Origin: an uncultured Bacilli bacterium
GTDB lineage: Bacteria > Bacillota_I > Bacilli_A > RF39 > UBA660
Assembly (NCBI GenBank): GCA_947627435.1
Contig: CANQWB010000001.1
Span: 7,952 to 71,951, forward strand
Direction: 5' to 3'
DNA: 64,000 nt
This document shows positions 360 to 60,982 of the stretch, in pieces. The notes below the pieces were generated by a model. The model searched no databases, was not told the DNA's origin, and saw nothing but the letters and a program-made list of their open reading frames with translations. The translations under genes and the position numbers were made by a program. Each line of letters starts with the position of its first letter. The first letter of the stretch is position 1.

Positions 360-394
360 TTTATAGAGAATTCATAACTACAAAAGAACTCTTT

Positions 395-961: not shown

Positions 962-973
962 AACTTTTCCTCC

Positions 974-1426: not shown

Positions 1427-1598
1427 CTTATCATATGGTTTTTTATCTAGTGTGTATGGGTGTCTAACTATATGTGATGTTCGAACATTATTTTTTATGA
1501 TTGAGACAACTTTTCCTCATTTATATATATCCTATTGTAAAATTTTGAAAAAAGGGTTGAATAAAGTTCGCTAATAGTATACAAATTATAGTAAGGTC

Positions 1599-2309
1599 GT
1601 GTGGTGTATGATTCATTATATTGTATGTGATGATAAAGCAGTATTTAGAGAAGAAGTAGTACAAGTAATAGATCGTGTTATGATGCATAATAACATGGAA
1701 TATGAAAAATATTTATTTGATTGTTATGATGAAAAGTTTATGGAAGTTTTAAATCATAAAACATCACTTAAAATCTATATACTAGATATTGAAGTGCATG
1801 GAAAATCAGGAATTAATATTGCCAAACTTATTCGTAAAAATGATATTGATAGTATGCTTATTTTTTGTACAGCGTATTATCAAAAATATGAAAAAGATAT
1901 GTTAAAAAGTCGATTTTTGTTTTTAGATTTTATTGACAAAAATGGAGATTATCAAAAAGAATTAGAAGAATCTATTACCTATGCATTAAAAACATTAAGT
2001 ATGAAAAAAATCATTCGTTTTAAAAATCAAAATATTATACACACAATTGCTATGAATGATATTTTATATATTATGAGAGACAAAGATCGTAAATGTACGA
2101 TTCAAACAACTGATAATCAAATTATTGTGAATAAACCTTTAGTAGAATTCAAAAAAATGTTAGATGATCGTTTTGTCTATTCACATCGAGCATGTATTGT
2201 CAATTATGATAGAATTATACAGTTTGATAAAAAGAATCGTACGATTTTGTTTGATAATCATATGGGTACAGATTTAGTATCTTCTCGTTTTCATATGAAA
2301 GATGAATAA
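1599..2309 (+). CDS. LytTR-family response regulator (orphan, no adjacent kinase)
   Basis: 236 aa; N-terminal receiver-like domain and C-terminal LytTR DNA-binding domain; paralogous to regulator at 40163-40885 (shared YILDIE.. and LytTR C-terminus). Confidence 0.8.
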   Translation: MWCMIHYIVCDDKAVFREEVVQVIDRVMMHNNMEYEKYLFDCYDEKFMEVLNHKTSLKIYILDIEVHGKSGINIAKLIRKNDIDSMLIFCTAYYQKYEKDMLKSRFLFLDFIDKNGDYQKELEESITYALKTLSMKKIIRFKNQNIIHTIAMNDILYIMRDKDRKCTIQTTDNQIIVNKPLVEFKKMLDDRFVYSHRACIVNYDRIIQFDKKNRTILFDNHMGTDLVSSRFHMKDE

Positions 2310-2385
2310 GTTACTAAATTTTATCAAAAAGTCTTGCTTATTCATTGATTTATTGATAAAATATAACATGTAACTTATGTTACAT

Positions 2386-2462
2386 GGCGTGGTTGGTGAA
2401 GTGGTTAACACGGTGGATTGTGGTTCCATTATGCGTGGGTTCGATTCCCACATCGCGCCCCA
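2386..2462 (+). tRNA. tRNA-His (anticodon GTG)
   Basis: Hand-folded cloverleaf; extra G-1 typical of tRNA-His; anticodon loop TTGTGGT; T-loop GGTTCGATTCC; encoded CCA. Confidence 0.9.
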
Positions 2463-2711
2463 TTTATAAAAGAGAGCAAACTTGTATTAAGTTTGTTTTT
2501 TTATAAAATAAAATTAAAGCAAAATAAGACGAAAAAAAAGTAAAAATCAAAAAATTAATTTACTAATGTATATTATTTTATAACTTAATAAAAAAATAGA
2601 GGGATATTGTATGAAAAAACCTCTATTTTACGATATGAAGAATTTTAAAGGTATTCAAGAAGAATTAGTAGAATTATTAAATGTATAAAAAAGCTAGAAC
2701 AACTAGCTTTT

Positions 2712-3179
2712 TTATTTTGAAAATGTAACTGTTACATTGCCATTACCTAAATCAGGTAGATTCTCAATATATCCTATTTTCGTATAACTGTAAATTGTAT
2801 CAAAAGATTCATAAAATAAAACCAAACAATTATTACCATAAAGCATAATGTCGCCTTTTTCAATATGCTTAGGGTTATATGGATTTGTTGGTAAGTTATA
2901 ATCCATATAAATATATTTCTCATTACCATTTAACTCAGTCAATGTAAATTGTTGTGGTAATAAATTAAAAAAAGCTTTAGCTGTGGCATTTTGTTCTAGT
3001 GTTGCATAATAATTTTTTTCATTAATAGTAACCTGTATCATTTTATCTAGATTTTCCATATTTTCATTTACCTCACTTTGACTATAGGGATTTGTTTGCT
3101 TTGCGATTTTGTGATTGGAACAACTAGTCATTGTAAATATTATAAAAATGAACCCATAAATTAATATTTTTGTTTTCAT
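2712..3179 (-). CDS. putative lipoprotein
   Basis: Signal peptide plus lipobox-like MTSC at N-terminus; 155 aa; bidirectional terminator hairpin at 2688-2714. Confidence 0.55.
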   Translation of the reverse strand: MKTKILIYGFIFIIFTMTSCSNHKIAKQTNPYSQSEVNENMENLDKMIQVTINEKNYYATLEQNATAKAFFNLLPQQFTLTELNGNEKYIYMDYNLPTNPYNPKHIEKGDIMLYGNNCLVLFYESFDTIYSYTKIGYIENLPDLGNGNVTVTFSK

Positions 3180-3306
3180 TTTTTGTTATCCTTTCATTCT
3201 TATTGAATATGATAAAATTCTATTTATCATCTAAATATAGTATATATAAAAATATAATAAATTAGATAAATAACATTGAAAATATCATTGTATGAGAAGT
3301 AGCTTT

Positions 3307-3810
3307 TTATCGTAATGTTTTATTTCGTAATTCTAACTCTTCCTGTATTTGTTCATATTGAATCCACTCATCATTCATATCAGCTTTACCTACTTTAACA
3401 ATAGTCATATGATAGGTTTCATTTATTTTCTGATAAATATTTAATATTTTTTGTAATTGTATTTCAGTGAGTTCTTCTAAAGAATTGATATATAAAATAC
3501 CACCATTATATATTCTGTTTTCAGAACTGCATCCTTGATATGGTAAACACCCAAAATCATCTAATAATATTTGAAACAAAATACCTGTATTATTTTGTTT
3601 TGCAACACTTTTAATTTCATTTGTGTTCTTACCCGTTTTAGTAATTCCAACTTTTCCAATACCACCTGTAAGTTTCAATATTTCTTTTCCAATGACATTT
3701 TGGAAGAAACGATTATGATTTTCAGTTGTCATGGAAATAATATTACCTTCTTTTGTAATGACGAATCCGGGTGTATAAGGATCCATTGTTATTTCATCTA
3801 CATATTCCAT
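3307..3810 (-). CDS. hypothetical protein
   Basis: 167-aa ORF, no recognised motif. Confidence 0.45.
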   Translation of the reverse strand: MEYVDEITMDPYTPGFVITKEGNIISMTTENHNRFFQNVIGKEILKLTGGIGKVGITKTGKNTNEIKSVAKQNNTGILFQILLDDFGCLPYQGCSSENRIYNGGILYINSLEELTEIQLQKILNIYQKINETYHMTIVKVGKADMNDEWIQYEQIQEELELRNKTLR

Positions 3811-3921
3811 GTTATCACCTTATAACATTATAGCATAAATTCATATATTTCACTACTGACTGAATAAGTCATAGTTTTTTTGTATGAAATTTTGTATAAT
3901 CGGTACAAAGAGGTGAAGAAC

Positions 3922-4050
3922 ATGAATCAACAAAAAATGGGAAAATTTATTGCAGAATTGAGGGTAGAGCACCACTATACACAAAAAGAAATAGGAGATA
4001 AATTAGGAATTTCGGATAACTCTGTATCAAAATGGGAACGCGGACTATGA
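3922..4050 (+). pseudogene. 5-prime fragment (HTH_XRE N-terminus) of an XRE::ABC-ATPase fusion gene disrupted by element insertion
   Basis: Encodes MNQQKMGKFIAELRVEHHYTQKEIGDKLGISDNSVSKWERG then runs into foreign sequence and stops; the missing HTH C-terminus (INAPDIYYLTTLAELFDVTVKELLNGE) reappears in frame at 14122 fused to an ABC ATPase. Confidence 0.65.
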
Positions 4051-4339
4051 CCTTACAAATGACACAAAATAAAAATATACAAGATTTGCTTTATTTTAAA
4101 GGGAAAATTGAAGAAACAAACATAATTGTAAAACACGAAGAAAAAGCAAAAATTGATTATAATTTAAGTATTATGGTATCAATAAACATATAAAATAAGA
4201 AAATGTCCTCTAATTGATACAAATACTTAATAAAACTAAAATAAAGTAAAAACTTATAATAATTCGGTTATGAAATTAACAAAGGTATGTGAGAAATCAT
4301 ATCTTTTTTATTTTGTGTAAAGAAAGTGAGGAATGATAT

Positions 4340-5620
4340 ATGAATTATGGAATATTTAGAAGTGAGCCAATAATGACTATAAATGATTTAGCACAAATAG
4401 GATCTCATAACAAACGTGAGAAAAAAGCCTATAAAAGTAACCCTAATATTAAATTAGAATTAACGAAAGATAATATAGAATTAGTACCCTTAAAAGAAAA
4501 ATATGTTAAGGGCTTTAAAATGCTTGTAAAAGACTATGAAAAAGAACACAACGAAAGAATGAAAACTGAAAGAGATGATAGAAAACGAACTTTTAATGAA
4601 ATGTTAAATAAATCTAAAAGTGTTGTTGCAGATGAATTAATGTTTACAGCAACACATAAGTTTTTTGATAATATGAGTAAAGAAGAAATAATGAGGTGGG
4701 CTGATACTTGTATGGATTTTGTTTACAATGATTTAGGTTATAAAAAAGAACAAGTATTACACGCAACAATCCACATGGATGAACTAACACCTCACATTCA
4801 TTGTGTAGTTGTTCCACTTGTTAAAAAATTAGATAAAAGAACAAATACTGAAAGATTTACTATTTCAAAAAAACAATATATTAAAGACAATATTCACTTA
4901 TCAGAATTACAAGATGTTTATAATTTAAGATTAAAGGAAGCAGGATTTGAACTAGAACGAGGTATTAAAAATAGTGATAGAAAACACATTAAAATTAAAG
5001 AATTTAAGAAAACCACTAGATATTATGAAAATAAAGTAACCACTATCAATAAAAATCTTGATAATGCTATGAACGATTTTGAAGAAAAAATGAAAACAAC
5101 CAAAAGTACCATTATTGATAAAGAATATGTAAAGGTTAGAAAAGACACTTTTGATAGTATGAATAATGTTATACAAGAAACAAAAAAAGCAATAGAATTT
5201 CAACCTAAAATAGAGCAATTATTTAATGAAGTTAATACCTACACTACAAGTCATCAAACACTAGAAAAAGAAAATAAGAATCTTCAAAGAGAAGTAAAAG
5301 CACTTACTACTAGAAATCAAAACTTAACAAAAGAGAATAACAACCTTAAAACCTATTTAAAAGCCATTTTAGAGGCAATTAAACACTTTTTTAGAGAAAT
5401 ACTACAAATTGGTAATGAACCTACAAAAGAAGCCACTACAAGCGAAATAAAGGACTATTATAATAATGAGGATTTTGACTCCAATGATGTTTATGATATT
5501 TCCAAAGGAACAACCAAAGAAGATGAATTATTTGATTATGCAGAAATTCCTAGTTATTTAAAAACCAGCAAAAAATCTTATAAAGAAAAAGACAAAGATG
5601 ACTACGAAATGAGCCTATAA
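4340..5620 (+). CDS. MobV-family relaxase (plasmid recombination enzyme Mob/Pre)
   Basis: 426 aa; signature HATIHMDELTPHIHCVVVPL (HxDE...PHxH motif III of MobV/Pre relaxases); coiled-coil C-terminus. Confidence 0.85.
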   Translation: MNYGIFRSEPIMTINDLAQIGSHNKREKKAYKSNPNIKLELTKDNIELVPLKEKYVKGFKMLVKDYEKEHNERMKTERDDRKRTFNEMLNKSKSVVADELMFTATHKFFDNMSKEEIMRWADTCMDFVYNDLGYKKEQVLHATIHMDELTPHIHCVVVPLVKKLDKRTNTERFTISKKQYIKDNIHLSELQDVYNLRLKEAGFELERGIKNSDRKHIKIKEFKKTTRYYENKVTTINKNLDNAMNDFEEKMKTTKSTIIDKEYVKVRKDTFDSMNNVIQETKKAIEFQPKIEQLFNEVNTYTTSHQTLEKENKNLQREVKALTTRNQNLTKENNNLKTYLKAILEAIKHFFREILQIGNEPTKEATTSEIKDYYNNEDFDSNDVYDISKGTTKEDELFDYAEIPSYLKTSKKSYKEKDKDDYEMSL

Positions 5621-5662
5621 GAAAAGTGAGATATGTTATTGATTTAGCATATTCTCACTTTT

Positions 5663-6091
5663 TTATTTTCTTAAAAACTCATCAATAGAAAGATTATGAT
5701 TTTTACAGATTGTATATAAAGTTAATGTTGTTATCAAACTCATACCTATTTCATAATGACTATAAGTAGAACGAGATATAGAACATTCATCAGCAATTTC
5801 TTGTTGAGTTAAGCCTAATTTAGTTCTCAATGATTTTAGTTTCTTTCCAATTTTGACTTGGTTAATCACTATGTTATTTGTATGTTCTTGATTTTCTCTA
5901 GTTAGTCCTAAAACAAAATCTATTGAATAATTAAATTGATTACAGAACTTTACTAATTTCTTTAATGGTATAGAATCATAAGCATTTTCCCAACCACGAA
6001 CTGTTGAATTACTTACACCAAATATATTACCCAATTCAGTTTGTGTCATCTCTAATTCTTCTCTACAATACTTTAAATTATTTCCTATCAT
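5663..6091 (-). CDS. XRE-family transcriptional regulator with two tandem HTH_3 domains
   Basis: Two Cro/C1-type HTH units (QTELGNIFGVSNSTVRGWEN.. and QQEIADECSISRSTYSHYE..). Confidence 0.8.
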   Translation of the reverse strand: MIGNNLKYCREELEMTQTELGNIFGVSNSTVRGWENAYDSIPLKKLVKFCNQFNYSIDFVLGLTRENQEHTNNIVINQVKIGKKLKSLRTKLGLTQQEIADECSISRSTYSHYEIGMSLITTLTLYTICKNHNLSIDEFLRK

Positions 6092-6192
6092 ATATGTTTC
6101 ACCATAATAATTTTCCCATCAAATTTTAATTTGATACGAAAATAGCGGGTAATGTATCAAAAATGTGATATAATCTTTTATAGAAAGGGGAA

Positions 6193-6495
6193 ATGAATAT
6201 GTATTTAAGTTTCAAAGATATTTGTTTATGTGTTTTAAAGGCTCTTATATTAACCTTAATCTTTGTAGCATTAATAGGCTTAATAATGTTTGATTACAAA
6301 ATTGGAATTAATTATTGTGATTTAATGAATATACCGAGAGATTTAGCACTTTCTGTTATGAGTTTAGGTATGGCAATAAATATCACTATTATTATGTTTG
6401 TAATAGAAATAATTGTATTGTATTTTATTATTAAAAAACTTAAACGAATTCAGTTATTTAACAATATTTGTGAATTTTTAAGTATTGATTATTGA
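6193..6495 (+). CDS. small integral membrane protein (3 predicted TM)
   Basis: 100 aa, three hydrophobic helices. Confidence 0.4.
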   Translation: MNMYLSFKDICLCVLKALILTLIFVALIGLIMFDYKIGINYCDLMNIPRDLALSVMSLGMAINITIIMFVIEIIVLYFIIKKLKRIQLFNNICEFLSIDY

Positions 6496-6593
6496 TAAAA
6501 GATTATTAAATCTAGTTAAAATCATTAAGAAAAAGTGATATAATTATATTACAAAGTGATGCAGAAATAGTAATTTGTTGAATAGGAGGAATT

Positions 6594-7814
6594 ATGAAAA
6601 AACAAATTAAAATAATTTTAGTAGTTATAATAAGTCTTATAGTTTTATATGGTGTATTATTCTTTGTTGATATGAACAGAGTTAAGCACTTAAAAAGACC
6701 TATATTTTGTGTAGAAAATGGATATATGGGTAGTATGACAAGATATGATGGTTTAGGATATAAAATAGGTCTTGATATTAACGCAACAACAGGAGAAATA
6801 ACTTATGGACAAATGACTATATTAGGACAAACTATTGTCAAATCATATAGTGAAAATGAAGATAATAAAGCAACAGATGATTATGATAAGCAATTAGTAC
6901 AATGTTTAGAAAGCCAATTAGGAGGCTATCTTGTAACCGAAAAAGATGATTTAATAGAAATACCTTTGAGTGAAATAAAAAATAGTGATAAAGAAAAAAT
7001 CTCCTATTATAAAGGAGTATATGCTAGTAATCATCCAAATAATATTTATGTAATGGTTTTTCCAAAAAATGGAACTTATGAATCTAGTGTAATGAAAGAT
7101 TTTGATAAATATTTTTATGAAAAATTTTCTGTATATCAAAAGTATGAAAGTCCTACTACTCCAACAATTTACATTCATACTAATGACAACGATGTAGATT
7201 TCAAAGAAATCACTAACAAGTGTGTAACTAGGAAAAATACTGAAAATGGTAAATCTATTCCTACAGAAACATTAAATAAAATTAATGACACTACTAAAAT
7301 AATTATAAAATCTAGTCAAGAAGAGTTAGGAACAATAACCGATAAAGAAAAACTGACAGAAATATTAAGTGCTATTTCAAGCAGTAAAAGATATGGCGAA
7401 GTATGTACTTCTGATGGACATGGATTTGAATTTAATATGTATGACAAAAATAATAAACTTATTGATACCATTTATATTTGGGGTGATGGTGCAAGATTAA
7501 TGCCTAAAAGTCTTAATGGTTGTCCTTATGTAACCACAGATAATACTGATTTAAGAAAAATAATTGAAGATACAACTGATTATATATTTTCTGGAATTTT
7601 AGATTTTAGAGATGATATTAATCAAACAGAGCAAACATTAATATACAAAGATGGTAAAAATAGTTATTATTTAAATAGTAAAGATCCTAATGAAATATTG
7701 ATTAAATTTATGTTAAATAATAAAGTAATGACTCTTAAATATGCTTTAGAAAATAAATATATTTCAGCAGAAAAAGTTGCTAGTGAGTATCCAGATATAT
7801 TGATAAGAAAATAA
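6594..7814 (+). CDS. membrane-anchored protein, N-terminal domain paralogous to 8414-8950 (GLGYK motif)
   Basis: N-terminal TM, then KRPIFCVENGYMGSMTRYDGLGYKIGL resembling EPKYCIKIVSNDGSKVTYWGLGYKVIRYV of the downstream paralog. Confidence 0.5.
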   Translation: MKKQIKIILVVIISLIVLYGVLFFVDMNRVKHLKRPIFCVENGYMGSMTRYDGLGYKIGLDINATTGEITYGQMTILGQTIVKSYSENEDNKATDDYDKQLVQCLESQLGGYLVTEKDDLIEIPLSEIKNSDKEKISYYKGVYASNHPNNIYVMVFPKNGTYESSVMKDFDKYFYEKFSVYQKYESPTTPTIYIHTNDNDVDFKEITNKCVTRKNTENGKSIPTETLNKINDTTKIIIKSSQEELGTITDKEKLTEILSAISSSKRYGEVCTSDGHGFEFNMYDKNNKLIDTIYIWGDGARLMPKSLNGCPYVTTDNTDLRKIIEDTTDYIFSGILDFRDDINQTEQTLIYKDGKNSYYLNSKDPNEILIKFMLNNKVMTLKYALENKYISAEKVASEYPDILIRK

Positions 7815-7824
7815 TAAGTTAAAT

Positions 7825-7837
7825 AAATTACAATTTG
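7825..7837. repeat. palindromic motif AAATT-AC-AATTT copy 1, upstream of 7856 gene
   Basis: Perfect inverted repeat immediately followed by GTAAGGGAG RBS. Confidence 0.4.
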
Positions 7838-7855
7838 TAAGGGAGATGTTGTTTT

Positions 7856-8383
7856 ATGGATAATAAGAAAAAAATAGTAATAGGAGTTGTGATTTTAATT
7901 TTGTTAGTAACTATTGGAGGAGTAATTTACTATACTATTTATAAAGATGTTACTGATAGAGAAAACTTTGATGGAAAAAAAGAAAATTTGGGTAATACTC
8001 CAGTAGATACAACAAGTAACAATTTTGATTTTTATATTGAAAAACCAGAAATTCATAATGATATTAGATTTAATGATTATTTCACTTTTAGTGATAGAAA
8101 GATTTATTTAGCAGGTAATATTGAACAATTTTATGTTATAGATGGAAAAACCATGATTTTAAAGGAATATATTTCAAATGCTAATAGAACAATGAATGAT
8201 AGCATTAAATCGATAACTGATAAATTAGAATTAAAAGATACCTTAAAAGATGGAGGAACAAAGATTTACAAATCAAAAGACAAAGATATTACAATGATAG
8301 TATGTAACACTATTAAAAACGATAAAAATATATTTATTGGGGATTATTCTATGGAATATACAGAAGGAGATTGTAAAAACTAA
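7856..8383 (+). CDS. membrane-anchored small protein (175 aa), cassette member
   Basis: N-terminal TM (KKKIVIGVVILILLV..), start context identical to the next gene. Confidence 0.5.
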   Translation: MDNKKKIVIGVVILILLVTIGGVIYYTIYKDVTDRENFDGKKENLGNTPVDTTSNNFDFYIEKPEIHNDIRFNDYFTFSDRKIYLAGNIEQFYVIDGKTMILKEYISNANRTMNDSIKSITDKLELKDTLKDGGTKIYKSKDKDITMIVCNTIKNDKNIFIGDYSMEYTEGDCKN

Positions 8384-8397
8384 CAAATTACAATTTG
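8384..8397. repeat. palindromic motif CAAATT-AC-AATTTG copy 2, upstream of 8414 gene
   Basis: Perfect 6+2+6 inverted repeat followed by GAAAGGGAA RBS. Confidence 0.4.
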
Positions 8398-8413
8398 AAA
8401 GGGAAATGCGTTT

Positions 8414-8950
8414 ATGAAAAAGAAAATATATATTGGTGCAGGAATAATTTTAGTTATACTTATAGTTGCAGGAATCATAACAAACTATGCAGATAGTGGT
8501 AGAGTAACAACAGGACATGAGCCAAAGTATTGTATTAAAATAGTTAGTAATGATGGTAGTAAAGTGACTTATTGGGGATTAGGTTATAAAGTTATTAGAT
8601 ATGTTGGAGTATCTCCAAATGAGCCTTATGAAAATAATATTGGTGTAAAAATGGGAAGTTGGTTTATGAATTATGATTTACCAAATGAAAAAGTCATCAC
8701 AATAGAATATGAAGGTAAAACAATAGAAATAAATAATTATGATGACATCAATAAAATTTACAATATATTAGTTAATTCAAAATACAACTCTGAAATATGT
8801 GATGGGATAAATACTCACAAAATAATAATAGACAATGAAGTATATTATTTAAAAGAGAGTTGTCAAGAAATTCAAAAAGGAGATAAACAATCAAAAATAT
8901 CAAAAGAAGATTTAGACACAATATTAAAAATAATAGATAGTAATAAGTAA
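8414..8950 (+). CDS. membrane-anchored small protein (178 aa), cassette member
   Basis: N-terminal TM (KKKIYIGAGIILVILIV..), GLGYK motif shared with 6594 gene. Confidence 0.5.
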   Translation: MKKKIYIGAGIILVILIVAGIITNYADSGRVTTGHEPKYCIKIVSNDGSKVTYWGLGYKVIRYVGVSPNEPYENNIGVKMGSWFMNYDLPNEKVITIEYEGKTIEINNYDDINKIYNILVNSKYNSEICDGINTHKIIIDNEVYYLKESCQEIQKGDKQSKISKEDLDTILKIIDSNK

Positions 8951-8952
8951 TA

Positions 8953-8966
8953 CAAATTACAATTTA
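8953..8966. repeat. palindromic motif CAAATT-AC-AATTTA copy 3 (imperfect), after last cassette gene
   Basis: Third copy of the motif, not followed by an ORF. Confidence 0.35.
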
Positions 8967-8971
8967 TAGAA

Positions 8972-9385
8972 CAGATTAAAGCGAGAACCGAGCCAAAAGA
9001 AATTACATAACTAATGGCTCGGTTAAAACCTAGTTCTTGGCGACTAGGTAACACACTACGATATTGGCAAAGCCAATAACGATGTGTGCAAAGGGTGATC
9101 CCTTTTGAAACCCCTTTTAAGCAACATATTACAAAGTTTCACAATGTAATATTGTTGCCTTTTTATTTCACTTACGTTTCATAAAAAGAAAAAAAGGACT
9201 ACAACTTTCATCAGCATAGCTGACAAAACGTGATAGCCTTTTTTTAATGAAAATAACCTTAATGCTAAAGTCTTACGACTAAAGCAAAAAGGTTATTTTT
9301 TTCTTTTGTTATCACAAAAGTATTGATGAATAAAATTACTTTTCCCACTTTCATTGTCTTACGACAACAAAACGTGTTCGTAATT
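8972..9385. other. GC-enriched, highly structured non-coding region (candidate oriT/sso or ncRNA) within the element
   Basis: No ORF; multiple stem-loops (AACCGAGCC..GGCTCGGTT 9 bp; CCTAGT..ACTAGG; CAACATATTACA..TGTAATATTGTTG; AATAACCTT..AAGGTTATT+T-run); GTCTTACGAC direct repeat x2; local GC well above flanks. Confidence 0.4.
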
Positions 9386-9832
9386 TTATTTCTTCTTATT
9401 ATATGTTTTTTCTAATAATCTTGCAGTATCTCTCTTTGCTACATAAATTGCTAAATAAGTAAACACTTCATATACTACCATTACAATAAAGAATCCGATT
9501 ATAATATATTGATTATGTGTGATGCTTTGTTTAACCCATTCAGCACCCTGAATAATTAAATATACTACACCAAAGAATACAGTTGATAATGTAGTAGAGT
9601 CATCAAAAGATCGTTGTATCACTCTTGATTCTTCTTTATCAACATTTAATCCTCTTACACTCCATCTTGCAATTACCATTAACACCAACACCATTAAAAA
9701 TGGAGTAATAACCCAATATAGATTATAACCATAATCATTTTTGAGTATTAAAACGAATACTAAACTTACTAACATAAAAATATTTAATAATACGATTCCA
9801 ATATTTCTTATTAGATTTTTATTTCTTTGCAT
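9386..9832 (-). CDS. integral membrane protein (4 TM), co-transcribed with XRE repressor
   Basis: 148 aa, four hydrophobic segments; overlaps stop of upstream XRE gene by 14 nt. Confidence 0.5.
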   Translation of the reverse strand: MQRNKNLIRNIGIVLLNIFMLVSLVFVLILKNDYGYNLYWVITPFLMVLVLMVIARWSVRGLNVDKEESRVIQRSFDDSTTLSTVFFGVVYLIIQGAEWVKQSITHNQYIIIGFFIVMVVYEVFTYLAIYVAKRDTARLLEKTYNKKK

Positions 9833-10337
9833 TTTTGTTTCTCTCCTTTACTTTTAAACTTAGAATTAAATTAACAATTTCATTAGACGTATTGATTTGA
9901 TATTTTGTATCTTCTATTGTATGTAGTAGTAATTCTTTTTCACTTTCTAATATGTTTTGCTTTTTTAAATTTTCTTCACACGACTTAACTAATTGTTCTG
10001 AATTAGTAATACTACCTAACACATTGATTTCAGCCTCATTTAATTCATCTAAATTCATTTTTTCATAGTAATCCTTAATAAATGGATTTAATGAACTAAC
10101 TTCCATACCCAAACCTATCATGTACATCATTTCATTATAATTTACGTTTATGTGTCTACTAATCTTTCTTAAAGTTTTAGGGTTAGGTATTTCTCTTTCT
10201 CCTGATTCAATTTTAGATAATTCAGCATTACTAATATTTGCAATTTTAGCAAGTTGTCTTTGAGAAAGTTTTGCTTTTTCTCGTGCTTCAGCGATTATCT
10301 CGCCAATCTTTTTTTCTTGCATTGTAATACACCTCAC
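9819..10337 (-). CDS. XRE/cI-like HTH repressor
   Basis: HTH_3 (LSQRQLAKIANISNAELSKIESGEREIPNPKTLRKISRHINV); divergent from sigma-A promoter TTGACA-17-TATATT at 10413-10441. Confidence 0.75.
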   Translation of the reverse strand: MRCITMQEKKIGEIIAEAREKAKLSQRQLAKIANISNAELSKIESGEREIPNPKTLRKISRHINVNYNEMMYMIGLGMEVSSLNPFIKDYYEKMNLDELNEAEINVLGSITNSEQLVKSCEENLKKQNILESEKELLLHTIEDTKYQINTSNEIVNLILSLKVKERNKNAKK

Positions 10338-10474
10338 ACATACATAATAGCATATATGTTACCTAAAATCAACAAAATACATAAAAATGTTTCAAAAAGT
10401 GTTGACAACTTCGTAATTATTATGTATATTGTATGTGTTACCGAAAATTAACATTGAAAGGAGGGATTAAATGA

Positions 10475-10735
10475 ATGAGGATTAAACACCTAGAAGTACC
10501 ACAAGAGATTTGGGAAGATAAAAGAATCCCAAAAGAAACGAAGTATATTTACTCTTATATCTATTCTAAAGGATTTGATAGAATTATCACAGACATAAAT
10601 ATAGGAGAGATACAACAAACCATTAAAATTAAAAATAAGGGTTTGAAAAGAAGTCTTGAAATATTAAAACAATTAAAGTATCTAAAATATTTTCAAGAAT
10701 ATGCAACAGGAATGTACACAATAACACTTAACTAA
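10475..10735 (+). CDS. HTH_36-like small DNA-binding protein
   Basis: Pattern KETKYIYSYIYSKGFDRIITDINIGEIQQTIKIKNKGLKRSLEILKQLKYL resembles the winged-helix HTH_36 fold of phage/plasmid replication organisers. Confidence 0.45.
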   Translation: MRIKHLEVPQEIWEDKRIPKETKYIYSYIYSKGFDRIITDINIGEIQQTIKIKNKGLKRSLEILKQLKYLKYFQEYATGMYTITLN

Positions 10736-11005
10736 AGTGCCGAAAAGCGTTAGTTATAAGAGGTACAGTAAGATGAAAGGCTTATGTTAGTACCTATTCT
10801 AGTAATAGAATGAATCTAGTTTGAAATAAGACATACTCAAAGAACTATTAAAATAAAAAGAAATGTATGTGTTATTTCAAATAATATAATCCGATGAAAC
10901 AGGATTTAAAATAAAGTTTCAGGGATAACTTTGCTTATTTTTAGTAGTTAGACTTGTAGATAATACAGGTTTTTTTGTTGTTTAAATCAAATAAAGGAAA
11001 GGAGA

Positions 11006-11257
11006 ATGTCTATGAGAGAATTAACAAGAGTTGATATTGTAAAAAACAGAGTTGATACGATCCCACAATACTATATTTTAGATTACTTAAAGAAAAACTT
11101 AAATATAGATGAATTTAAAATATATCTAGTTAATCGTAATAGTATCAAAGTTATTGATTCAACAGGAGATTATTTATATTTTAATTGTGATGACAATACA
11201 AAAGAAGTAACTTATCATGAAAAACCAAAAGAAAAAGAATATGAAATAGGATTATAA
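11006..11257 (+). CDS. hypothetical protein
   Basis: 83-aa ORF with RBS AAAGGAAAGGAG. Confidence 0.4.
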   Translation: MSMRELTRVDIVKNRVDTIPQYYILDYLKKNLNIDEFKIYLVNRNSIKVIDSTGDYLYFNCDDNTKEVTYHEKPKEKEYEIGL

Positions 11258-11261
11258 GACT

Positions 11262-11519
11262 ATGGGTTGCATTATACTAGATGATTCCATAGTTAAAAGT
11301 AATAAGATAAATTCCACAGAAAAACTTGTATATGGTGTTATTCTATCACTTGCGAATAATAAAGGTTATTGTTATGCAAGTAATGATTATATAAGTGATA
11401 AAGTAAACCTATCTAAAAGAACGATTACTAATTCTATCAGCGAACTAAAAAGAGCAAATTATATAAGAGTTGAATACGTAAACTTTGAAAGACACATCTA
11501 TCCCATACAAACCGAGTAG
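11262..11519 (+). CDS. HTH_36 domain protein
   Basis: STEKLVYGVILSLANNKGYCYASNDYISDKVNLSKRTITNSISELKRANYI matches the HTH_36 pattern. Confidence 0.55.
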   Translation: MGCIILDDSIVKSNKINSTEKLVYGVILSLANNKGYCYASNDYISDKVNLSKRTITNSISELKRANYIRVEYVNFERHIYPIQTE

Positions 11520-11690
11520 CAATATTCTTCTATACCCTATGGAAGAATACTGCTATACCCCATAGCAAAATACTTCTACCAAAGAATATAAGAATAATAA
11601 ATAAGTATAATAAATAAATATTTTAATTATATTTAAATTTATTTTAAGTAATTTAAATAACTAAAGAAATTAAATGAAAGGATTTGATAT

Positions 11691-12131
11691 ATGGATTATG
11701 AAAATGTAAATTATAATGAGGTTATCATATCAGGAATAATCAATGTTGTTACAGATACTAATGATAAGTATATTAAGTTTGGATTAACAACTAACAAATA
11801 TACTTTAAATGATGATAAAAAGGTTTATGTAAGTTTAAATATATCAAGAGAATTATATAACACTTATCAAGATTATTTTGTTAAAGGAAATAAAGTCTTT
11901 ATCAAAGGTTATCTAAATTCTTATGTTGATAAAACTAAACACATACAGAGTTTTATTACAACAACTGATATTTCAAATAACCCAAATGACATTAAAACAG
12001 GAAGAAAAGCACCACATATTAGGTATGATCCTGATGGTGTTATGGTATGGAATGGCAAACGTTGTGAGGCGATTCCACCAACTGAAAAAGAACTACAAGA
12101 AATGCAAGAATTATTAGGCGATTATAAATAG
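11691..12131 (+). CDS. single-stranded DNA-binding protein (divergent SSB, OB fold)
   Basis: NEVIISGIINVV.. and YVSLNISRELYNTYQDYFVKGNKVFIKGYLNSY parallel the SSB OB-fold core; acidic C-terminal tail region. Confidence 0.5.
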   Translation: MDYENVNYNEVIISGIINVVTDTNDKYIKFGLTTNKYTLNDDKKVYVSLNISRELYNTYQDYFVKGNKVFIKGYLNSYVDKTKHIQSFITTTDISNNPNDIKTGRKAPHIRYDPDGVMVWNGKRCEAIPPTEKELQEMQELLGDYK

Positions 12132-12204
12132 TATTGAACGGAGGAAATGAGATTATATATGAAAAAGAATTATTATTAAAACTAAAAAGAAAGGGGGAAG
12201 TTTA

Positions 12205-12357
12205 TTGAACGATACTAAAAAATTAACACAAATTGAAATTGAAAATATATTAGATGAAACAATTAACTTATCAATAATAAGTAAATTACTGAATTTAAAA
12301 CTTATTACAGAAAAACAATATTACGTACTGAAAGAAAAAATAAAGAATTTTTATTAA
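12205..12357 (+). CDS. small ORF (TTG start, 50 codons) with SHOCT-like C-terminus; possible recombination directionality factor
   Basis: RBS AAGGGGGAAG 7 nt upstream of TTG; C-terminal LITEKQYYVLKEKIKNF; directly upstream of recombinase. Confidence 0.25.
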   Translation: MNDTKKLTQIEIENILDETINLSIISKLLNLKLITEKQYYVLKEKIKNFY

Positions 12358-12413
12358 AAGGCTACAGGAATGTACAAAAATAAGATATAATAAATACAGA
12401 GGACATTTATTTA

Positions 12414-14171
12414 ATGTCTAACATTAAAAGAAAGAGAGGTAAAATGGCGATTGTTGAGGTTATTAAAAGTAATAATCTCATAACCGAAGAAATCAATACT
12501 GAAAATAAACTAAAGAAAGTATGTGCATATTGTAGAGTTTCAACAGATAGTGAGGAACAATTAACAAGTTATTCATCACAAATAAAACATTATTCAGCAC
12601 AGATAAAAGCGAATCCAAATTGGGAGTTTGTAGGAATATATGCTGATGAGGGTATAAGTGGAACACAAGTTAAAAAACGTACTGAATTTCAAAGAATGAT
12701 AAACGATGCTTTAAATGGTAAGATAGATATTATTATAGCAAAATCAATATCAAGATTTGCAAGAAATACTATTGATACCTTAAAGTATGTAAGAGATTTA
12801 AGAGAACGTAAAGTTGATGTGTATTTTGAAAAGGAAAATATTCACACATTAGAACTTGAAAGTGAAATGTTTTTAACACTCTTTAGTGCATTTGCTCAAG
12901 CTGAAAGTGAATCAACTTCTCAAAACGTTAAAATGGGAATAAAAGCAATGATGAAACGAGGAGAATTTGTTGGTAAAGCAGAATGCTATGGCTATAAATG
13001 GAATAAGGAAACGAAGACACTAGAAGTTTACGAAGAACAAGCAAGTGTTGTTAGAATGATATTTAATTGGTATGCTGATGGAGTTGGAACAAGAACGATT
13101 GCTAATAGACTTAATGAAAAAGGTTATAAAACTTATACAGGTAAAAATTTTACTCAACAAGGTGTAAGAGAAATGATTTCTAATGAAAAATATGTTGGAG
13201 ATTTATTGTGTCAAAAGTATTATACGATAAGTCCTCTAACACATAAGAAAACAAGAAATTATGGCGAACGTGAAAAATATTATGTCAAAGATCATCATAC
13301 ACCTATCATTACAAGAAAAGTTTGGGACAAAGTACAAGAAATACTAACAAAAAGAAGTAAGAAGATAATCCCTGATGGCAAAAGTCATGCAAGTAAATTC
13401 ACAAGTCAATATGCTTTTAGTTCTAAAATAGAATGTGGACTATGTGGAACAAATTATGCTCGTAGAGTTAGTGGCAAGTATAAAGATGGAAGTCAAAAAG
13501 TCTATTGGGCTTGTTATCATAAAGTAGTTAAGAAAAGTAATTGTGAACACTCTATAACCTTTAGAGAAGATTTTTTAAAAGATTTATTCATACAAATTTA
13601 TAATTCTATTGTGGAGAAAAAGCATAAGACAAAAGATAAGTTATTAAAGGCAATACGTGAAACTCTAGAAAGTGATGATAGCAAGACTAAAATTGATAAA
13701 CTTTATAAAGAACTAGAATCACAACAAAAAAGATTATCTAATTTAATTGATATGAAACTAGATGACTATGAGAATAAAAATGCTTATACTGAAAAGGAAA
13801 AAGAAATAAATGGTAAAATCAAAAGCCTAAATGATGAAATCTATCAATTAGAGTTAGAAAACAATAATAACAAAGAAATTTCTAAAAGACTAAAAGAGAT
13901 AGAAGAAGTTGTGTTTGAAAGTGAGAAATCTTTAAAAGAATTTGATGAGGCAACATTTGAAAATTTAGTTGAGAAAATCATAATAGGAGAAAAAGATGAG
14001 AATGGAAATGAGAATCCTAATGTGATTAGATTTATTTTAAAAATTGGTGGAGATTATAAAGCCATAATCTCCCCAAATAATAATAGTATTGATGATGTGT
14101 CATTTGAACAAGGAAACAGGTATCAATGCACCCGATATTTATTACTTAACTACATTAGCAGAATTATTTGA
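12414..14171 (+). CDS. large serine recombinase (resolvase/invertase N-terminal domain + recombinase domain + zinc ribbon + coiled coil)
   Basis: 585 aa; catalytic region YCRVSTDSEEQ...IIAKSISRFARN; Cys-rich CGLCGTNYARR...CYHK zinc ribbon; coiled-coil; reads across the right junction of the element. Confidence 0.9.
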   Translation: MSNIKRKRGKMAIVEVIKSNNLITEEINTENKLKKVCAYCRVSTDSEEQLTSYSSQIKHYSAQIKANPNWEFVGIYADEGISGTQVKKRTEFQRMINDALNGKIDIIIAKSISRFARNTIDTLKYVRDLRERKVDVYFEKENIHTLELESEMFLTLFSAFAQAESESTSQNVKMGIKAMMKRGEFVGKAECYGYKWNKETKTLEVYEEQASVVRMIFNWYADGVGTRTIANRLNEKGYKTYTGKNFTQQGVREMISNEKYVGDLLCQKYYTISPLTHKKTRNYGEREKYYVKDHHTPIITRKVWDKVQEILTKRSKKIIPDGKSHASKFTSQYAFSSKIECGLCGTNYARRVSGKYKDGSQKVYWACYHKVVKKSNCEHSITFREDFLKDLFIQIYNSIVEKKHKTKDKLLKAIRETLESDDSKTKIDKLYKELESQQKRLSNLIDMKLDDYENKNAYTEKEKEINGKIKSLNDEIYQLELENNNNKEISKRLKEIEEVVFESEKSLKEFDEATFENLVEKIIIGEKDENGNENPNVIRFILKIGGDYKAIISPNNNSIDDVSFEQGNRYQCTRYLLLNYISRII

Positions 14172-19230: not shown

Positions 19231-19321
19231 ATTAATGATTAAAAGATAAAAATCGTGGTGTAAAGGGACAACATAATCTTGCATTTAAAATAAAATTATG
19301 ATAATCTAAATGTAGAAATAA

Positions 19322-19400
19322 AATCATAGAATAGTTTCAAATAGTAAGCATTTCTAATATTTACTATTTGTAAACGGGGGGGGGGTACCCCTCTTTTTTA
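19322..19400 (+). promoter_or_regulatory. conserved leader copy 1: 10-bp hairpin (CAAATAGTAA..TTACTATTTG) + G10 tract + CCCC + T-run
   Basis: About 90% identical to 43375-43450; poly-G 19376-19385 (10 G) versus 9 G in the paralogous leader. Confidence 0.45.
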
Positions 19401-19497
19401 TTGTCTTGAAAAGAAAAATAAAATATAGTACACTAGTGGTGTATATAAGAATAAAAGAATTAGAAAAGTATCAGAATAGGAGTAAGGAGAGATGTAT

Positions 19498-20949
19498 ATG
19501 AAGAAAAAAGGATTTACATTGATAGAATTATTAGCGGTAATCGTAATACTTGCAATTATCGCACTAATCGCAACGCCAATGATTATGGGTGTAATAGAAG
19601 ATGCCAGAAAAGGAGCAGCAATTCAATCAGTAAATGGATTACTAGAAGCAGGAGAACAATATCAAATAGAAGGAATGCTAGAGGGGAATTCTTCAAATGT
19701 AATTGATTTAACAAGTGATACATTAAGTATAAAAGGAAGTAAACCAGAAAGTGGCTTATTAGTAATAGATAATAGTGGAGATATGAGTATTATAGCAAAA
19801 TACGGAAAATACTGTATCGAAAAGAAATATGAAGATGAAGAGCCAACAATAGTAGAAAAAAATCCATGTGTGATAGAAGAAGATGAAGTTGATGTCAAAA
19901 TCTATGGAGTAAAAAGAAAAATTAATAGCTCATCAACAGAGTGGGAAAGAATCGATAATAGTGTTGGATTAGAAGCAAAAGCACAAATAGGAACACAAGA
20001 AGTAACAAATGATTTTGACAATATTTATCCATGGAGTGAAATATATACTTACAGTTGGAATAAAGCAACAGGAAAAGAGACAAGATGGAATGAAGAAGGA
20101 TTTTCATATACTGATGATTATGTATTTACAAAAATACCAGAATTTTATTATAGAAGATATCAAGAGAATGGATATGAATATGTTTTAATATCTAAAAATA
20201 AAATAGAAGGATATACAAAAAGCAATGAATTTTCAATAGGAAGATATACGATGTCAGGAACTGAAACAGGGGTTTATAGTAAAAGTGGAGCACAACCGTT
20301 AAGAAATAAAACAATAGGCGAATTTAGAGACTATGCAAGAGCCTTAGGAAATGAATTCAGTCAATTAGATTATCATTACTTTATTATTCAATTATTATAT
20401 TTAGTAGAATATGCAAATTATGATTCTCAAGAAAAATTAGGAAGAGGAAATGTGGCCAATAGTATAGTAATATCTAGTGGTGGTTGCGATACATTAGGCA
20501 TGAAATCAGGGACACTTAATAATGATGGACAACATTCCATGATATATAGAGGAATGGAAGATATTTATGGAAATATATTTCAATTTGTAGATGGAATTAA
20601 TATCAAAGATTATCAAGCATATGTATGTTATAATCCAAATCAATATGAATCAGATACATTTGAAGGCTATTATCAACAATTAGGTTATGTAAATACAATT
20701 GCGGGAGGATATATCAAAAAACTAGGATATGATGTCAATCATTCATTAATCAGTTTTCCATTAGAGGTAGGTGGAAAAGAAAATACATATATTCCAGATA
20801 GTTATTATCGATCTTCTGGAAATAGAATAGTAATGGTTGGTGGGCTTGGAAATCGTGATTCTCAGGCAGGCTTGTGGTGTTGGGACTGTAATAATCCTTC
20901 GTCCATTGTTGGTGACTATATCAGTGCTCGCCTTATTAAAACTAGTTAG
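19498..20949 (+). CDS. modular type IV prepilin-like protein (class III signal peptide + about 450-aa C-terminal module), paralog A
   Basis: N-terminus MKKKGFTLIELLAVIVILAIIALIATPMIMGV (G/FTLIE prepilin peptidase site, Glu+5); C-terminal half highly similar to 43476-44963. Confidence 0.7.
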   Translation: MKKKGFTLIELLAVIVILAIIALIATPMIMGVIEDARKGAAIQSVNGLLEAGEQYQIEGMLEGNSSNVIDLTSDTLSIKGSKPESGLLVIDNSGDMSIIAKYGKYCIEKKYEDEEPTIVEKNPCVIEEDEVDVKIYGVKRKINSSSTEWERIDNSVGLEAKAQIGTQEVTNDFDNIYPWSEIYTYSWNKATGKETRWNEEGFSYTDDYVFTKIPEFYYRRYQENGYEYVLISKNKIEGYTKSNEFSIGRYTMSGTETGVYSKSGAQPLRNKTIGEFRDYARALGNEFSQLDYHYFIIQLLYLVEYANYDSQEKLGRGNVANSIVISSGGCDTLGMKSGTLNNDGQHSMIYRGMEDIYGNIFQFVDGINIKDYQAYVCYNPNQYESDTFEGYYQQLGYVNTIAGGYIKKLGYDVNHSLISFPLEVGGKENTYIPDSYYRSSGNRIVMVGGLGNRDSQAGLWCWDCNNPSSIVGDYISARLIKTS

Positions 20950-40083: not shown

Positions 40084-40112
40084 TTGCAAATTTTGTCAAA
40101 GCATGGTAGAAT
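40084..40112 (+). promoter_or_regulatory. sigma-A-type promoter TTGCAA-17-TAGAAT for the LytTR regulator/kinase operon
   Basis: Near-consensus -35/-10 with 17-bp spacer; implies the true start codon is ATG at 40163. Confidence 0.5.
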
Positions 40113-43321: not shown

Positions 43322-43374
43322 GAAAAAGGGCTTGAAAAATAGAGCCCTTTTATGATAATATGAATATGTCAAAT

Positions 43375-43450
43375 AAATCATAAGATAGTTTCAAATAGTA
43401 AGCATTTTTGATATTTACTATTTGTAAACGGGGGGGGGTAACCCTCTTTT
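43375..43450 (+). promoter_or_regulatory. conserved leader copy 2: same hairpin + G9 tract + CCC + T-run
   Basis: Hairpin arms 43392-43401/43415-43424; poly-G 43430-43438 (9 G). Confidence 0.45.
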
Positions 43451-43475
43451 TTTGTGATTGGAAGGAGTGAAAAGA

Positions 43476-44963
43476 ATGAAGAAGAAAGGATTTACATTGA
43501 TAGAATTATTGGCTGTAATCGTAATATTAGCAATTATTGCACTAATCGCAACGCCAATGATTATGGGAGTAATAGAAAATGCAAGAAAGAAAGCAGCAAT
43601 TCAATCAGTGAATGGCTTATTAGAAGCAGGAGAACAATATCAAGTAGAATCTATGATGGATGGAGCAAGAGAAACTGAAATCGATTTAACTGGTGATACT
43701 TTAGATATAAAAGGAAGTAAACCAGATAGTGGAGAACTCATCTATGATAGTTTAGGAAATATGAGTATTATAGCAAAATATGGAAAATACTGTATCGAAA
43801 AGAAATTTTTAGATGAAGAACCAACCATAGTCACAAGAAAAGAATGTGAGATGAAAGCATCAGAAAAAGCTAATCAAACAACAAAAATATATGGAGTAAA
43901 AAGAAATATAGAAAGTGAATCAACAGAATGGGAAAGAATAGATGATGGAATAGATTTAACAGCAAATGCCCAAATAGGACCAGATGCAACAAATGTAAAA
44001 AATGATTTTGATAGTGTATATCCATGGAGTGATATAGAGACATATACATATGATGTAGAGAAAAAAGAAGTAACCAGTTGGTATAATGAAGAAAAAGATA
44101 AATTCAAATTTGATGGAAGTAAAGGAGAAGTACTAACATATATACCAACATTCTATTATAAGAGATATCAAGAAGATGGATATGAATATATTTTAATAAG
44201 TAATAAAAATTTAGAGGGATATACAAGAAGTGATGCATTTTCAATAGGAAGATATACAATGTCAGGTGATAGCAATGCTGTACATAGTAAAAGTGGGAAA
44301 CAACCATTAACGAATAAAAAAATAAATGAATTTAGAGACTATGCAAGAGCATTAGGGGATGAATTTAGTCAATTAGATTATCATTACTTTATTATTCAAT
44401 TATTATATTTAGTGGAATATGCAGATTATGATTCACAAGTCAAGTTAGGACAAGGATATACAGCTACAAGCAATACTGCAGTTATTAAAAGTGGAGGTTG
44501 TGATGAATTAGGAATGAAATCAGGAACACTCAATAATGATGAACAACATTCTATGATATACAGAGGAATGGAAGATATCTATGGAAATGTATGGCAATTT
44601 GTAGATGGAATCAATATTAAAGATCATCAGGCATATGTATGTTATAATCCTAATCAATATGAATCAGACAAGTATGATGGATGTTATCAAAAACTAGGTT
44701 ATGTGAATGCAAATGTTAATGGATATATAAAGAAATTAGGTTATGATTCTAAAAATCCATTAGTGAGTTTTCCAACAGAAATTGGTGGAAGTGCTAGTAC
44801 ACATATTTCAGATAATTATTGGCATAATCCTGACAATAGAATAGCTATTGTCGGCGGTGCATGGTTCGTTACCAATCTTGGTGGGTTGTGGTATTGGAAC
44901 TTGTATCATGATTCGGGTGATACGTACGGCTACTTCGGAGCTCGACTTCTTAAAACTAATTAA
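43476..44963 (+). CDS. modular type IV prepilin-like protein, paralog B
   Basis: MKKKGFTLIELLAVIVILAIIALIATPMIMGV identical to paralog A; RBS GGAAGGAG; mosaic divergence in the first half, conserved C-terminal half. Confidence 0.7.
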   Translation: MKKKGFTLIELLAVIVILAIIALIATPMIMGVIENARKKAAIQSVNGLLEAGEQYQVESMMDGARETEIDLTGDTLDIKGSKPDSGELIYDSLGNMSIIAKYGKYCIEKKFLDEEPTIVTRKECEMKASEKANQTTKIYGVKRNIESESTEWERIDDGIDLTANAQIGPDATNVKNDFDSVYPWSDIETYTYDVEKKEVTSWYNEEKDKFKFDGSKGEVLTYIPTFYYKRYQEDGYEYILISNKNLEGYTRSDAFSIGRYTMSGDSNAVHSKSGKQPLTNKKINEFRDYARALGDEFSQLDYHYFIIQLLYLVEYADYDSQVKLGQGYTATSNTAVIKSGGCDELGMKSGTLNNDEQHSMIYRGMEDIYGNVWQFVDGINIKDHQAYVCYNPNQYESDKYDGCYQKLGYVNANVNGYIKKLGYDSKNPLVSFPTEIGGSASTHISDNYWHNPDNRIAIVGGAWFVTNLGGLWYWNLYHDSGDTYGYFGARLLKTN

Positions 44964-60979: not shown

Positions 60980-60982
60980 AAT

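Follow-up and report, generated by a model that had tools for sequence, protein, structure and literature searches.

Modular type IV pilins, in which a short linker joins a small pilin module with a class III signal to a bulky binding module, have been described in the monoderm bacterium Streptococcus sanguinis: PilB carries a von Willebrand factor A (vWA) module and PilC a lectin module (Raynaud et al. 2021, PMC8179133). The variable proteins of diversity-generating retroelements (DGRs), such as Mtd of BPP-1, TaqVP (5vf4) and TvpA (2y3c), share a C-type-lectin-like fold with a variable region (VR) in the last ~40 residues, and a DGR-type lectin domain on a pilus adhesin has been established for the type V pili of Bacteroides (Macadangdang et al., PMC11601372). 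One survey names a "GspG-type pilin" among the rare VR-bearing protein domains, with no further analysis (PMC11661182). A full-text literature search returned no paper that combines "diversity-generating retroelement" with "type IV pilin" or "prepilin", and no description of a fusion of a pilin to a receptor-binding protein (RBP) emerged from a wider search that covered pilins, RBPs and tails of phages. Here, we describe two such fusion genes in a 64,000-nucleotide stretch of DNA from an uncultured Bacilli bacterium (assembly GCA_947627435.1, contig CANQWB010000001.1, positions 7,952 to 71,951 of the forward strand), which is referred to as the window and has a GC content of 28%. Both genes encode a type IV pilin domain followed by a module that is homologous to the DGR-diversified tail RBPs of siphovirus prophages. 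The origin and anatomy of this fusion are well supported.

The pilin and the phage receptor-binding module

The two coding sequences and their parts are located as follows (window coordinates):

19498..20949, plus strand: coding sequence of copy 1, 483 amino acids from MKKKGFTLIE
19498..19857, plus strand: pilin module of copy 1 (PF07963 and TIGR02532 above cut-off; fold by alignment to the modelled copy 2)
19888..20946, plus strand: phage-RBP-like module of copy 1 (phrog_5302, E 2e-55, residues 125-480; beta-sandwich and C-type-lectin-like core)
20836..20937, plus strand: VR-like tip of copy 1 (V447-I480: VGGLGNRDSQAGLWCWDCNNPSSIVGDYISARLI), in register with verified phage VRs and 38% identical to copy 2
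43476..44963, plus strand: coding sequence of copy 2, 495 amino acids, alternative start at 43458, identical to database protein P0001
43476..43835, plus strand: pilin module of copy 2 (amino acids 1-120; PF07963, TIGR02532, match to PilE1 8pfb, model)
43884..44960, plus strand: phage-RBP-like module of copy 2 (amino acids 137-495; phrog_5302, E 2e-58, homology to P0061, Foldseek)
44850..44951, plus strand: VR-like tip of copy 2 (V459-L492), followed by the 3' sequence GGAGCTCGACTTCTTAAAACTA common to phage VRs

Both genes are intact open reading frames (ORFs), and their products are paralogues with 66% identity (327/495, E = 0, BLASTP), as had been predicted from the sequence at the outset. 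For copy 1, an alternative ATG is present at 19492; of the two, 19498 has the better spacing from the GGAG motif.

The N-terminus of both proteins reads MKKKG|FTLIELLAVIVILAIIALIATP and carries Gly at position -1, Phe at +1 and Glu at +5, together with the short basic leader and the stretch of ~20 hydrophobic residues of a class III signal. In copy 1, MKKKG is expected to be the leader peptide, with cleavage before F6 and E10 at mature position +5. Both copies match PF07963 with 32 bits (cut-off 21.2) and TIGR02532 with 33 bits (cut-off 16.3), and sub-threshold matches were obtained to GspG, ComGC and other pilins. When copy 2 was compared with PDB sequences using phmmer, residues 6-97 aligned to the S. 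sanguinis-type pilin PilE1 (8pfb, E 9e-6) and to other pilins. The AlphaFold2 model of copy 2, which is based on an alignment of 85 sequences, has a mean predicted local distance difference test (pLDDT) score of 91.4 and a predicted template modelling (pTM) score of 0.87. It begins with a long helix (residues 8-62) and a small antiparallel β-sheet (strands 68-70, 85-90, 96-102, 105-109 and 117-119), after which a linker follows; the pLDDT of this pilin region lies between 72 and 90 per 10-residue block. Matches to Kelch_2 (E 0.058) and RDH (E 0.078) were discarded as noise.

The module that follows has a length of ~365 amino acids. Pfam finds nothing in the C-terminal module of either copy and, in particular, no enzyme family, a match to which had been named beforehand as a finding that would speak against a modular pilin. 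Since Pfam does not recognise the module, surveys that rely on domain signatures, including PMC8179133, would miss it. The PHROGs database assigns residues ~125-490 of both copies to phrog_5302 ("tail protein"), and the alignment covers profile positions 140-541 of 548, which is essentially the whole module. Proteins of PHROG 5302 are Mtd-like RBPs of gut siphoviruses and crAss-like phages; in contrast to the window genes, their genes are located in tail modules and encode phage adaptors (Mtd_N, tail-collar) or none. A tblastn search against 50,697 phage records matched 41 records with 24-36% identity, among them genes for tail or tail-fibre proteins of crAss-like phages, Yersinia phage fEV-1 and phages of Butyrivibrio, Clostridium and Lactobacillus. 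Over 5,400 members of a large protein collection match at E <= 1e-5; among the best 120 matches, 48 possess a prepilin motif, while the others are bare modules of 371-375 amino acids or proteins of 520-590 amino acids with PF12571 or Mtd_N (PF18454). Copy 2 shares 52-60% identity over the module with these pilin-less homologues (371-590 amino acids), and its residues 128-495 are 57% identical to the 372-amino-acid DGR target P0061 of a prophage.

Structure prediction points to the same family. Foldseek searches of the PDB with the model of copy 2 returned, in this order, TaqVP (E 6.8e-10), Mtd of BPP-1 (1.2e-4), PvdO and TvpA (5.9e-3), so that a C-type-lectin/formylglycine-generating enzyme (FGE)-like fold is combined with a C-terminal variable region as in DGR targets. 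The module is homologous to DGR-diversified tail RBPs of siphovirus prophages and has a C-type-lectin-like fold of the Mtd/TaqVP type; "phage-RBP-like", one of three identities that the original prediction had offered for it, is the one borne out by the PHROG profile, the tblastn matches, the verified DGR relatives and the fold. In the window proteins, the N-terminal tail-attachment domain of Mtd is replaced by a pilin.

The predicted likeness to PilB and PilC of S. sanguinis was found in the class III signal, in the domain made of an α1 helix and a β-sheet, and in the grafted module, which is attached through a short linker in a monoderm host; a role as tip-exposed adhesin would, by analogy, be expected here as well. 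The modular nature is also evident from the phage proteins of 371-375 amino acids that consist of the module alone and from the separately folded domains of the model. Unlike PilB and PilC, the window proteins, whose incorporation into a pilus is a prediction, bear a phage DGR-type RBP and are encoded by orphan genes outside any pil operon. Their genes are members of a larger family in which the tips are hypervariable and a leader containing a G tract is held in common.

The variable-region-like tip

Two pilin-less relatives that are accompanied by a DGR are P0061 (locus L017) and P0116 (locus L016). Both are encoded at the end of siphovirus tail modules, where the target gene is followed by a gap and then by an RVT_1 reverse transcriptase (RT); in L017, P0061 is preceded by PhageMin_Tail, Sipho_tail, Sipho_Gp37 and one unannotated ORF of 306 amino acids. 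Template repeats (TRs) were located 3' of the target gene at both loci. At non-A positions of the TR, VR and TR agree at 100% (L016) and 99% (L017) over a core of 105 nucleotides, and nearly all differences fall on TR adenines, which is the signature of a DGR. The hypervariable tails of both window proteins align in exact register with the phage VR, ..VGGxWxxxxxCGLWxWxxxxxSxxxxxxGARLLKT*. DGR cassettes of this phage RBP family hold more than one template: tandem non-identical TRs, up to four and ~155 nucleotides apart, are found between target gene and RT (L187 4192-4940, L017 11000-11690, also L182, L192, L196, L199 and L205), and in L187, the present VR matches just the second of its TRs. 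Such tandem TRs look like a library of alternative templates, and multi-template cassettes may be of independent interest.

The comparison of the two window copies, in 30-column blocks of their alignment and segment by segment, corrects the earlier picture of their variable and conserved parts. An N-terminus of 45 identical residues had been claimed; the copies do share the prepilin N-terminus, but identity is complete for residues 1-34 and amounts to 43/45 over the first 45 amino acids. Of the ~230 residues after the helix that had been described as diverged, residues 121-250 are indeed so, with 48% identity and four indels, and it is there that the divergence is concentrated, whereas residues 35-120, which form part of the pilin domain, are ~74% identical. 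Identity rises to 76% in residues 251-330 and is 72% in residues 331-450. The 75-80% identity claimed for the C-terminal ~220 residues applies only to residues 296-420 (~81%); the C-terminal ~200 residues are 66% identical overall, the last 75 ~43% and the last 45 38%. The most divergent stretch of both proteins is thus the extreme C-terminus, which had been overlooked, and these hypervariable last ~40 residues occupy the position of the phage VR.

The codons of the tip retain traces of template-directed mutagenesis. Across 13 family members, the 18 most variable codons of the tip end in T or C in 182/234 cases (78%) and in A in 10%, as against ~40% T or C and 52% A for the remainder of both window genes. 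Codon entropy in the tips is higher at positions 1 and 2 (1.52 and 1.47) than at position 3 (1.20), and conserved blocks show the reverse. Adenine mutagenesis of AAY template codons leaves such a pattern of NNY codons. Copy 2 additionally retains framework codons of the phage VR (GTC GGC GGT GCx TGG ... TTG TGG) as well as the 3' end GGAGCTCGACTTCTTAAAACTA.

No partner for these tips was found. An adenine-tolerant scan, which returned only A-rich noise, detected no TR for either tip in the window and none within 10 kb on either side of 15 related loci. Across 28 phage-type loci (26 from IMG/VR in addition to L016 and L017), the best A-compatible score for the window tips was 88/105, compared to 104-105/105 for true pairs, and the two verified TRs of L016 and L017 fit the window tips at just 56-74% of non-A positions. 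A search of IMG/VR with a fully degenerate IUPAC pattern (each base itself or A) matched poly-A stretches and was uninformative. No RT is encoded in the window (58 principal ORFs of at least 80 amino acids were read, and Pfam was run on the two pilin genes and 10 neighbours). The GC-rich hairpin of phage VRs was not found after either window gene, which is followed by AT-rich sequence instead; it is kept after the stop codon in L003, a pilin fusion, and in L008, which is 5'-truncated at a contig end.

The strongest sign against present activity comes from 11 pairs of proteins that are more than 90% identical and derive from different samples: only 0-2 of the last 50 residues differ, while up to 41 differences, clustered in residues ~120-290, occur elsewhere. 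Each paralogue therefore has a fixed tip, and the tips look frozen rather than actively mutated at present. In this respect, and in lacking a cognate TR, an RT or a downstream hairpin, the window genes differ from Mtd, TaqVP and TvpA, with which they share the fold, the position of the variable region and, through the verified prophage targets, direct sequence homology to DGR variable proteins. The patchwork of the two copies had been interpreted as antigenic or specificity variation; the discordant similarity of individual segments, described below, and the clustering of differences in residues ~120-290 lend the patchwork some support, but the near-invariance of each paralogue's tip between samples speaks against variation that is still going on at the tip.

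A multigene family with a common leader

Relatives of the two genes in the genome collection searched come exclusively from "uncultured Bacilli" metagenome-assembled genomes (MAGs) of rabbit and human (Hadza) gut. Additional paralogues, for which a search had been proposed, do exist: besides the two window copies there are at least two more, P0020 and P0127, whose listing points to the same source contig, and one rabbit-gut MAG contains at least eight loci of the family. The cotJ region of the rabbit MAG is 88% identical to window positions 3-2464, which makes this MAG a close relative. Synteny between L015 (1-828) and window positions 3-2464 suggests a further paralogue ~5 kb upstream of the window start. 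Orthologues of the pilin-RBP genes are present in many samples, and the architecture is retained across MAGs from different hosts, down to ~50% identity. The ratio of non-synonymous to synonymous substitution rates (dN/dS) ranges from 0.19 to 0.42 for the pilin and the core and from 0.39 to 1.0 for the tip; for the middle domain, it is 0.70 between copy 1 and copy 2. Judged by these ratios, the pilin and core parts are under purifying selection.

Similarity ranks among the homologues differ from segment to segment. Identity between P0002 and copy 2 is 95-98% for residues 1-250 and 66% for residues 331-450; for P0009, it is 100% in the pilin part and 75% in the middle, and the middle domain falls into two allele classes among the homologues. 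These discordant identities support recombination between paralogues, the exchange that had been put forward for checking. Other N-termini carry the module as well: L009 has a plain hydrophobic anchor, and P0111 and L014 have signal-anchor domains of different kinds. Domain shuffling of this sort is typical of RBPs. The protein encoded at L009 3021-4301 combines the same leader and module with the N-terminus MKRKGFATSAILYTLLLL, has neither Glu at +5 nor the globular domain of the pilin, and looks like a simple membrane-anchored version.

Upstream of both window genes lies a conserved 5' leader with the following elements:

19296..19406, plus strand: leader of copy 1, with -10-like TTATGATAAT, box AAATCATAGAATAGTTT, hairpin P1, G10, CCCCTC and T-run (terminator-like)
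19376..19385, plus strand: G10 homopolymer in the leader of copy 1
43332..43359, plus strand: promoter-like site of copy 2 (TTGAAA, 16 nucleotides, GATAAT; 10/12 consensus matches)
43350..43453, plus strand: leader of copy 2, with conserved box, hairpin P1, G9, CCCTC and T-run
43430..43438, plus strand: G9 homopolymer in the leader of copy 2

The reference blocks of the leader (19296-19399 and 43350-43453) are 84% identical, and the G10 and G9 tracts are the only two runs of at least seven G or seven C in the entire window. In the order of its elements, the leader consists of a promoter-like site, the box AAATCATAGAATAGTTT, a variable hairpin closed by GUUU/AAAC, G9-10, CCCYC, a U-run and the ribosome binding site. 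RNA folding gave z-scores of -3.7 for the leader of copy 1 and -5.1 for that of copy 2, and the latter contains six terminator-like matches compared to 0.1 expected. RNAalifold yields a plausible consensus of two hairpins with almost no covariation; the stem bases are invariant, so covariation says little about this structure, which is a prediction. No Rfam family was matched at gathering score (best E-value 1.4). The leader precedes most family members (L001 ~9888-9975, L002, L003, L004, L009 and L018), and a metagenome scan identified ~25 further low-GC instances (L026-L080) with G tracts of 9, 10 or 11 nucleotides. The genes that follow these instances encode either pilins fused to modules of other kinds or members of a family of small proteins with a membrane anchor (MKKIILGIIIGVIISGTVGV...). 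We infer that the leader acts as a transcription attenuator, which is possibly tuned by the length of the G tract, and the tract may be phase-variable. A terminator leader with a G tract may be of independent interest.

The genes themselves are solitary. Copy 1 is surrounded by ddl, a gene for an unknown protein of 311 amino acids, a gene for a DUF308 membrane protein, a UvrD-like helicase gene and addB/addA; near copy 2 are hpf, secA and a GHKL kinase gene paired with that of a LytTR response regulator. Both copies lie among housekeeping genes, no phage genes are nearby, and the location is not that of a phage tail module. Orthologues elsewhere are likewise solitary and were found between pcrA and ligA, after a glycosyltransferase cluster, and between tex and an ORF of 239 amino acids downstream of two tRNA-synthetase genes.

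The window holds several further features. A probable integrated mobile element (2387-14171) lies downstream of a tRNA gene (2387-2459) and contains a Mob/Pre-like protein (4340-5620), helix-turn-helix (HTH) regulators, small membrane proteins and a large serine recombinase (12414-14171). After secA, an accessory cluster (47769-54435) encodes a Cys-rich protein of 220 amino acids, a C39-like peptidase, a KilA-N protein and an Amidase_2 protein; it is followed by a transposase-like ORF (52755-54107), on either side of which lies one of two 60-nucleotide direct repeats (52558-52617 and 54376-54435) that are 78% identical. A cluster of 12 tRNA genes and then a minus-strand tyrosine-recombinase-like ORF (60089-61140, 62242-62397 and 62489-63421) likely mark an integration hotspot. 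Two LytTR-type response regulators are present (1599-2309 and 40103-42158), the second of which lies, together with its partner, an AgrC-like GHKL kinase, shortly before hpf and copy 2; a connection of the LytTR regulators to the pilin genes was not established.

Proposed filament adhesins and alternative explanations

Our preferred reading, to which we give slightly better than an even chance, is that the two proteins are bimodular type IV pilins that display a phage DGR-type RBP module on a filament, where it functions as an adhesin. According to this reading, the module would have been captured from the RBP gene of a prophage and then fused to a pilin. An A24 prepilin peptidase, with its gene at another site of the genome, would cleave the prepilin behind Gly5, and the pilin would then be built into a type IV filament, probably at its tip, where the lectin-like tip of the protein would bind a surface ligand, most likely a glycan or a protein. 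Paralogues would supply different binding specificities, which would have been created earlier by adenine mutagenesis and would now be fixed, with recombination shuffling them between paralogues. Expression would be gated by the shared leader, which ends in the G9-10/U-tract terminator.

The only direct genomic link of the module to a type IV filament system is a cluster in a Hadza-gut Bacilli MAG (L014 978-8698). There, a module homologue of 555 amino acids is encoded between a prepilin peptidase (A24_N_bact and Peptidase_A24) and a PilB-type T2SSE ATPase (minus strand), with T2SSF (PilC) upstream and two pilin-like genes (161 and 538 amino acids) downstream; the larger pilin-like protein is itself modular and bears the glycine-rich domain ALK_LTK_GRD. 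The original prediction had stated that no pilB, pilC or pilD genes are nearby, which is true of the window; because the L014 homologue lies inside a pilus cluster, the lack of pilus genes next to the window copies is no refutation of a pilus role.

Several points nevertheless weigh against filament display. Motif scans, the reading of ORFs of at least 80 amino acids and Pfam searches of unclear neighbours detected no gene for T2SSE, T2SSF or an A24 peptidase in the window, and neither a prepilin peptidase nor assembly genes were found within 10 kb of the pilin-fused orthologues examined. The module homologue of L014 does not possess the canonical GFTLIE prepilin N-terminus, and in L009, the shared leader and module come with a non-pilin anchor, so the N-terminus may need to provide no more than an attachment to the membrane. 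Finally, Mtd is a trimer, and a pilus would have to accommodate any such oligomerisation of the module.

A first alternative is that the proteins are surface lectins which stay anchored in the membrane and never polymerise, the prepilin-like N-terminus being a mere signal-anchor that keeps the phage-derived module at the outer membrane face. It would account for the orphan position among housekeeping genes at every pilin-fused locus examined, for the hydrophobic non-pilin anchor of L009 and for the still other N-termini of P0111 and the L014 protein. On the other hand, organisms with type IV filaments commonly have orphan pilin genes, and the conservation of Gly at -1, Phe at +1, Glu at +5 and a pilin domain of ~120 amino acids, with dN/dS of ~0.2-0.4, exceeds what an anchor needs. 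A domain tethered in this way would moreover hardly reach beyond the Gram-positive cell wall, and we regard an unpolymerised lectin as unlikely, at about one chance in five.

It is less likely still, and in our view rather improbable, that the tips are targets of an active remote DGR, whose RT and TR, in a prophage or in the chromosome proper, lie elsewhere in the genome and still rewrite them in trans. The NNY codon bias, the 3' end of the phage VR in copy 2 and the GC hairpin retained after L003 and L008 are all compatible with such activity, and prophages with cognate DGRs do exist in related spore-forming gut Bacilli; but a compatible TR was found neither in the window nor at the 15 related or the 28 phage-type loci, the window copies have no downstream GC hairpin, and the 0-2 differences in the last 50 residues of the near-identical pairs leave little room for ongoing mutagenesis.

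The proteins might also serve as an anti-phage decoy or receptor mask, in which a cell-borne RBP binds the cell's own receptor or competes with the phage and thereby blocks adsorption of related phages. With 57% identity to RBPs of prophages in related hosts, the module may bind a structure on the surface of that very lineage, and some paralogues adjoin clusters of glycosyltransferases for wall glycopolymers. Masking needs no pilin scaffold, though, PADLOC gave no defence match, and the context is not that of a defence island; we consider this role very improbable. Decaying, functionless prophage remnants with a chance pilin-like start, to which the phage origin of the module and the failure to find a DGR cassette in the window and at related loci might point, are scarcely credible given intact ORFs, dN/dS well below 1 outside the tip, an architecture conserved across MAGs from different hosts, a conserved leader and the absence of phage genes nearby.

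As filament adhesins, the window proteins would be a type IV counterpart in Bacilli of the DGR-linked type V pilus adhesins of Bacteroides. Both combine a C-type-lectin-like DGR-type domain with a pilus subunit in a gut commensal with many paralogous loci; the Bacteroides adhesins, however, belong to type V pili assembled by strand exchange in Bacteroidota and are served by active adjacent DGRs, whereas the window proteins carry a type IV pilin, occur in Bacilli and have apparently frozen tips. It is tempting to speculate, with a probability that we place below that of the membrane-anchored lectin and somewhat above that of a remote active DGR, that the orphan pilin-RBP genes form a contingency-locus family serving a type IV filament, in which the G9-11 leaders switch expression of each paralogue on or off, prophage DGRs with their arrays of different TRs make the repertoire of tips, and tips are moved in by gene conversion or by occasional retrohoming in trans; if true, this would be a phage-fuelled system of adhesin variation in gut Bacilli. 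The fusion extends the idea of the modular pilin to a module that is invisible to domain databases, and its defined tips, defined leader and candidate machinery cluster provide testable handles on adhesion in uncultured gut Bacilli. Taken together, the family would represent a route by which bacteria reuse the host-recognition hardware of phages: an RBP domain shaped by a DGR is placed on a subunit of the pilus, and the fusion is then multiplied until it forms a family whose members have fixed specificities.

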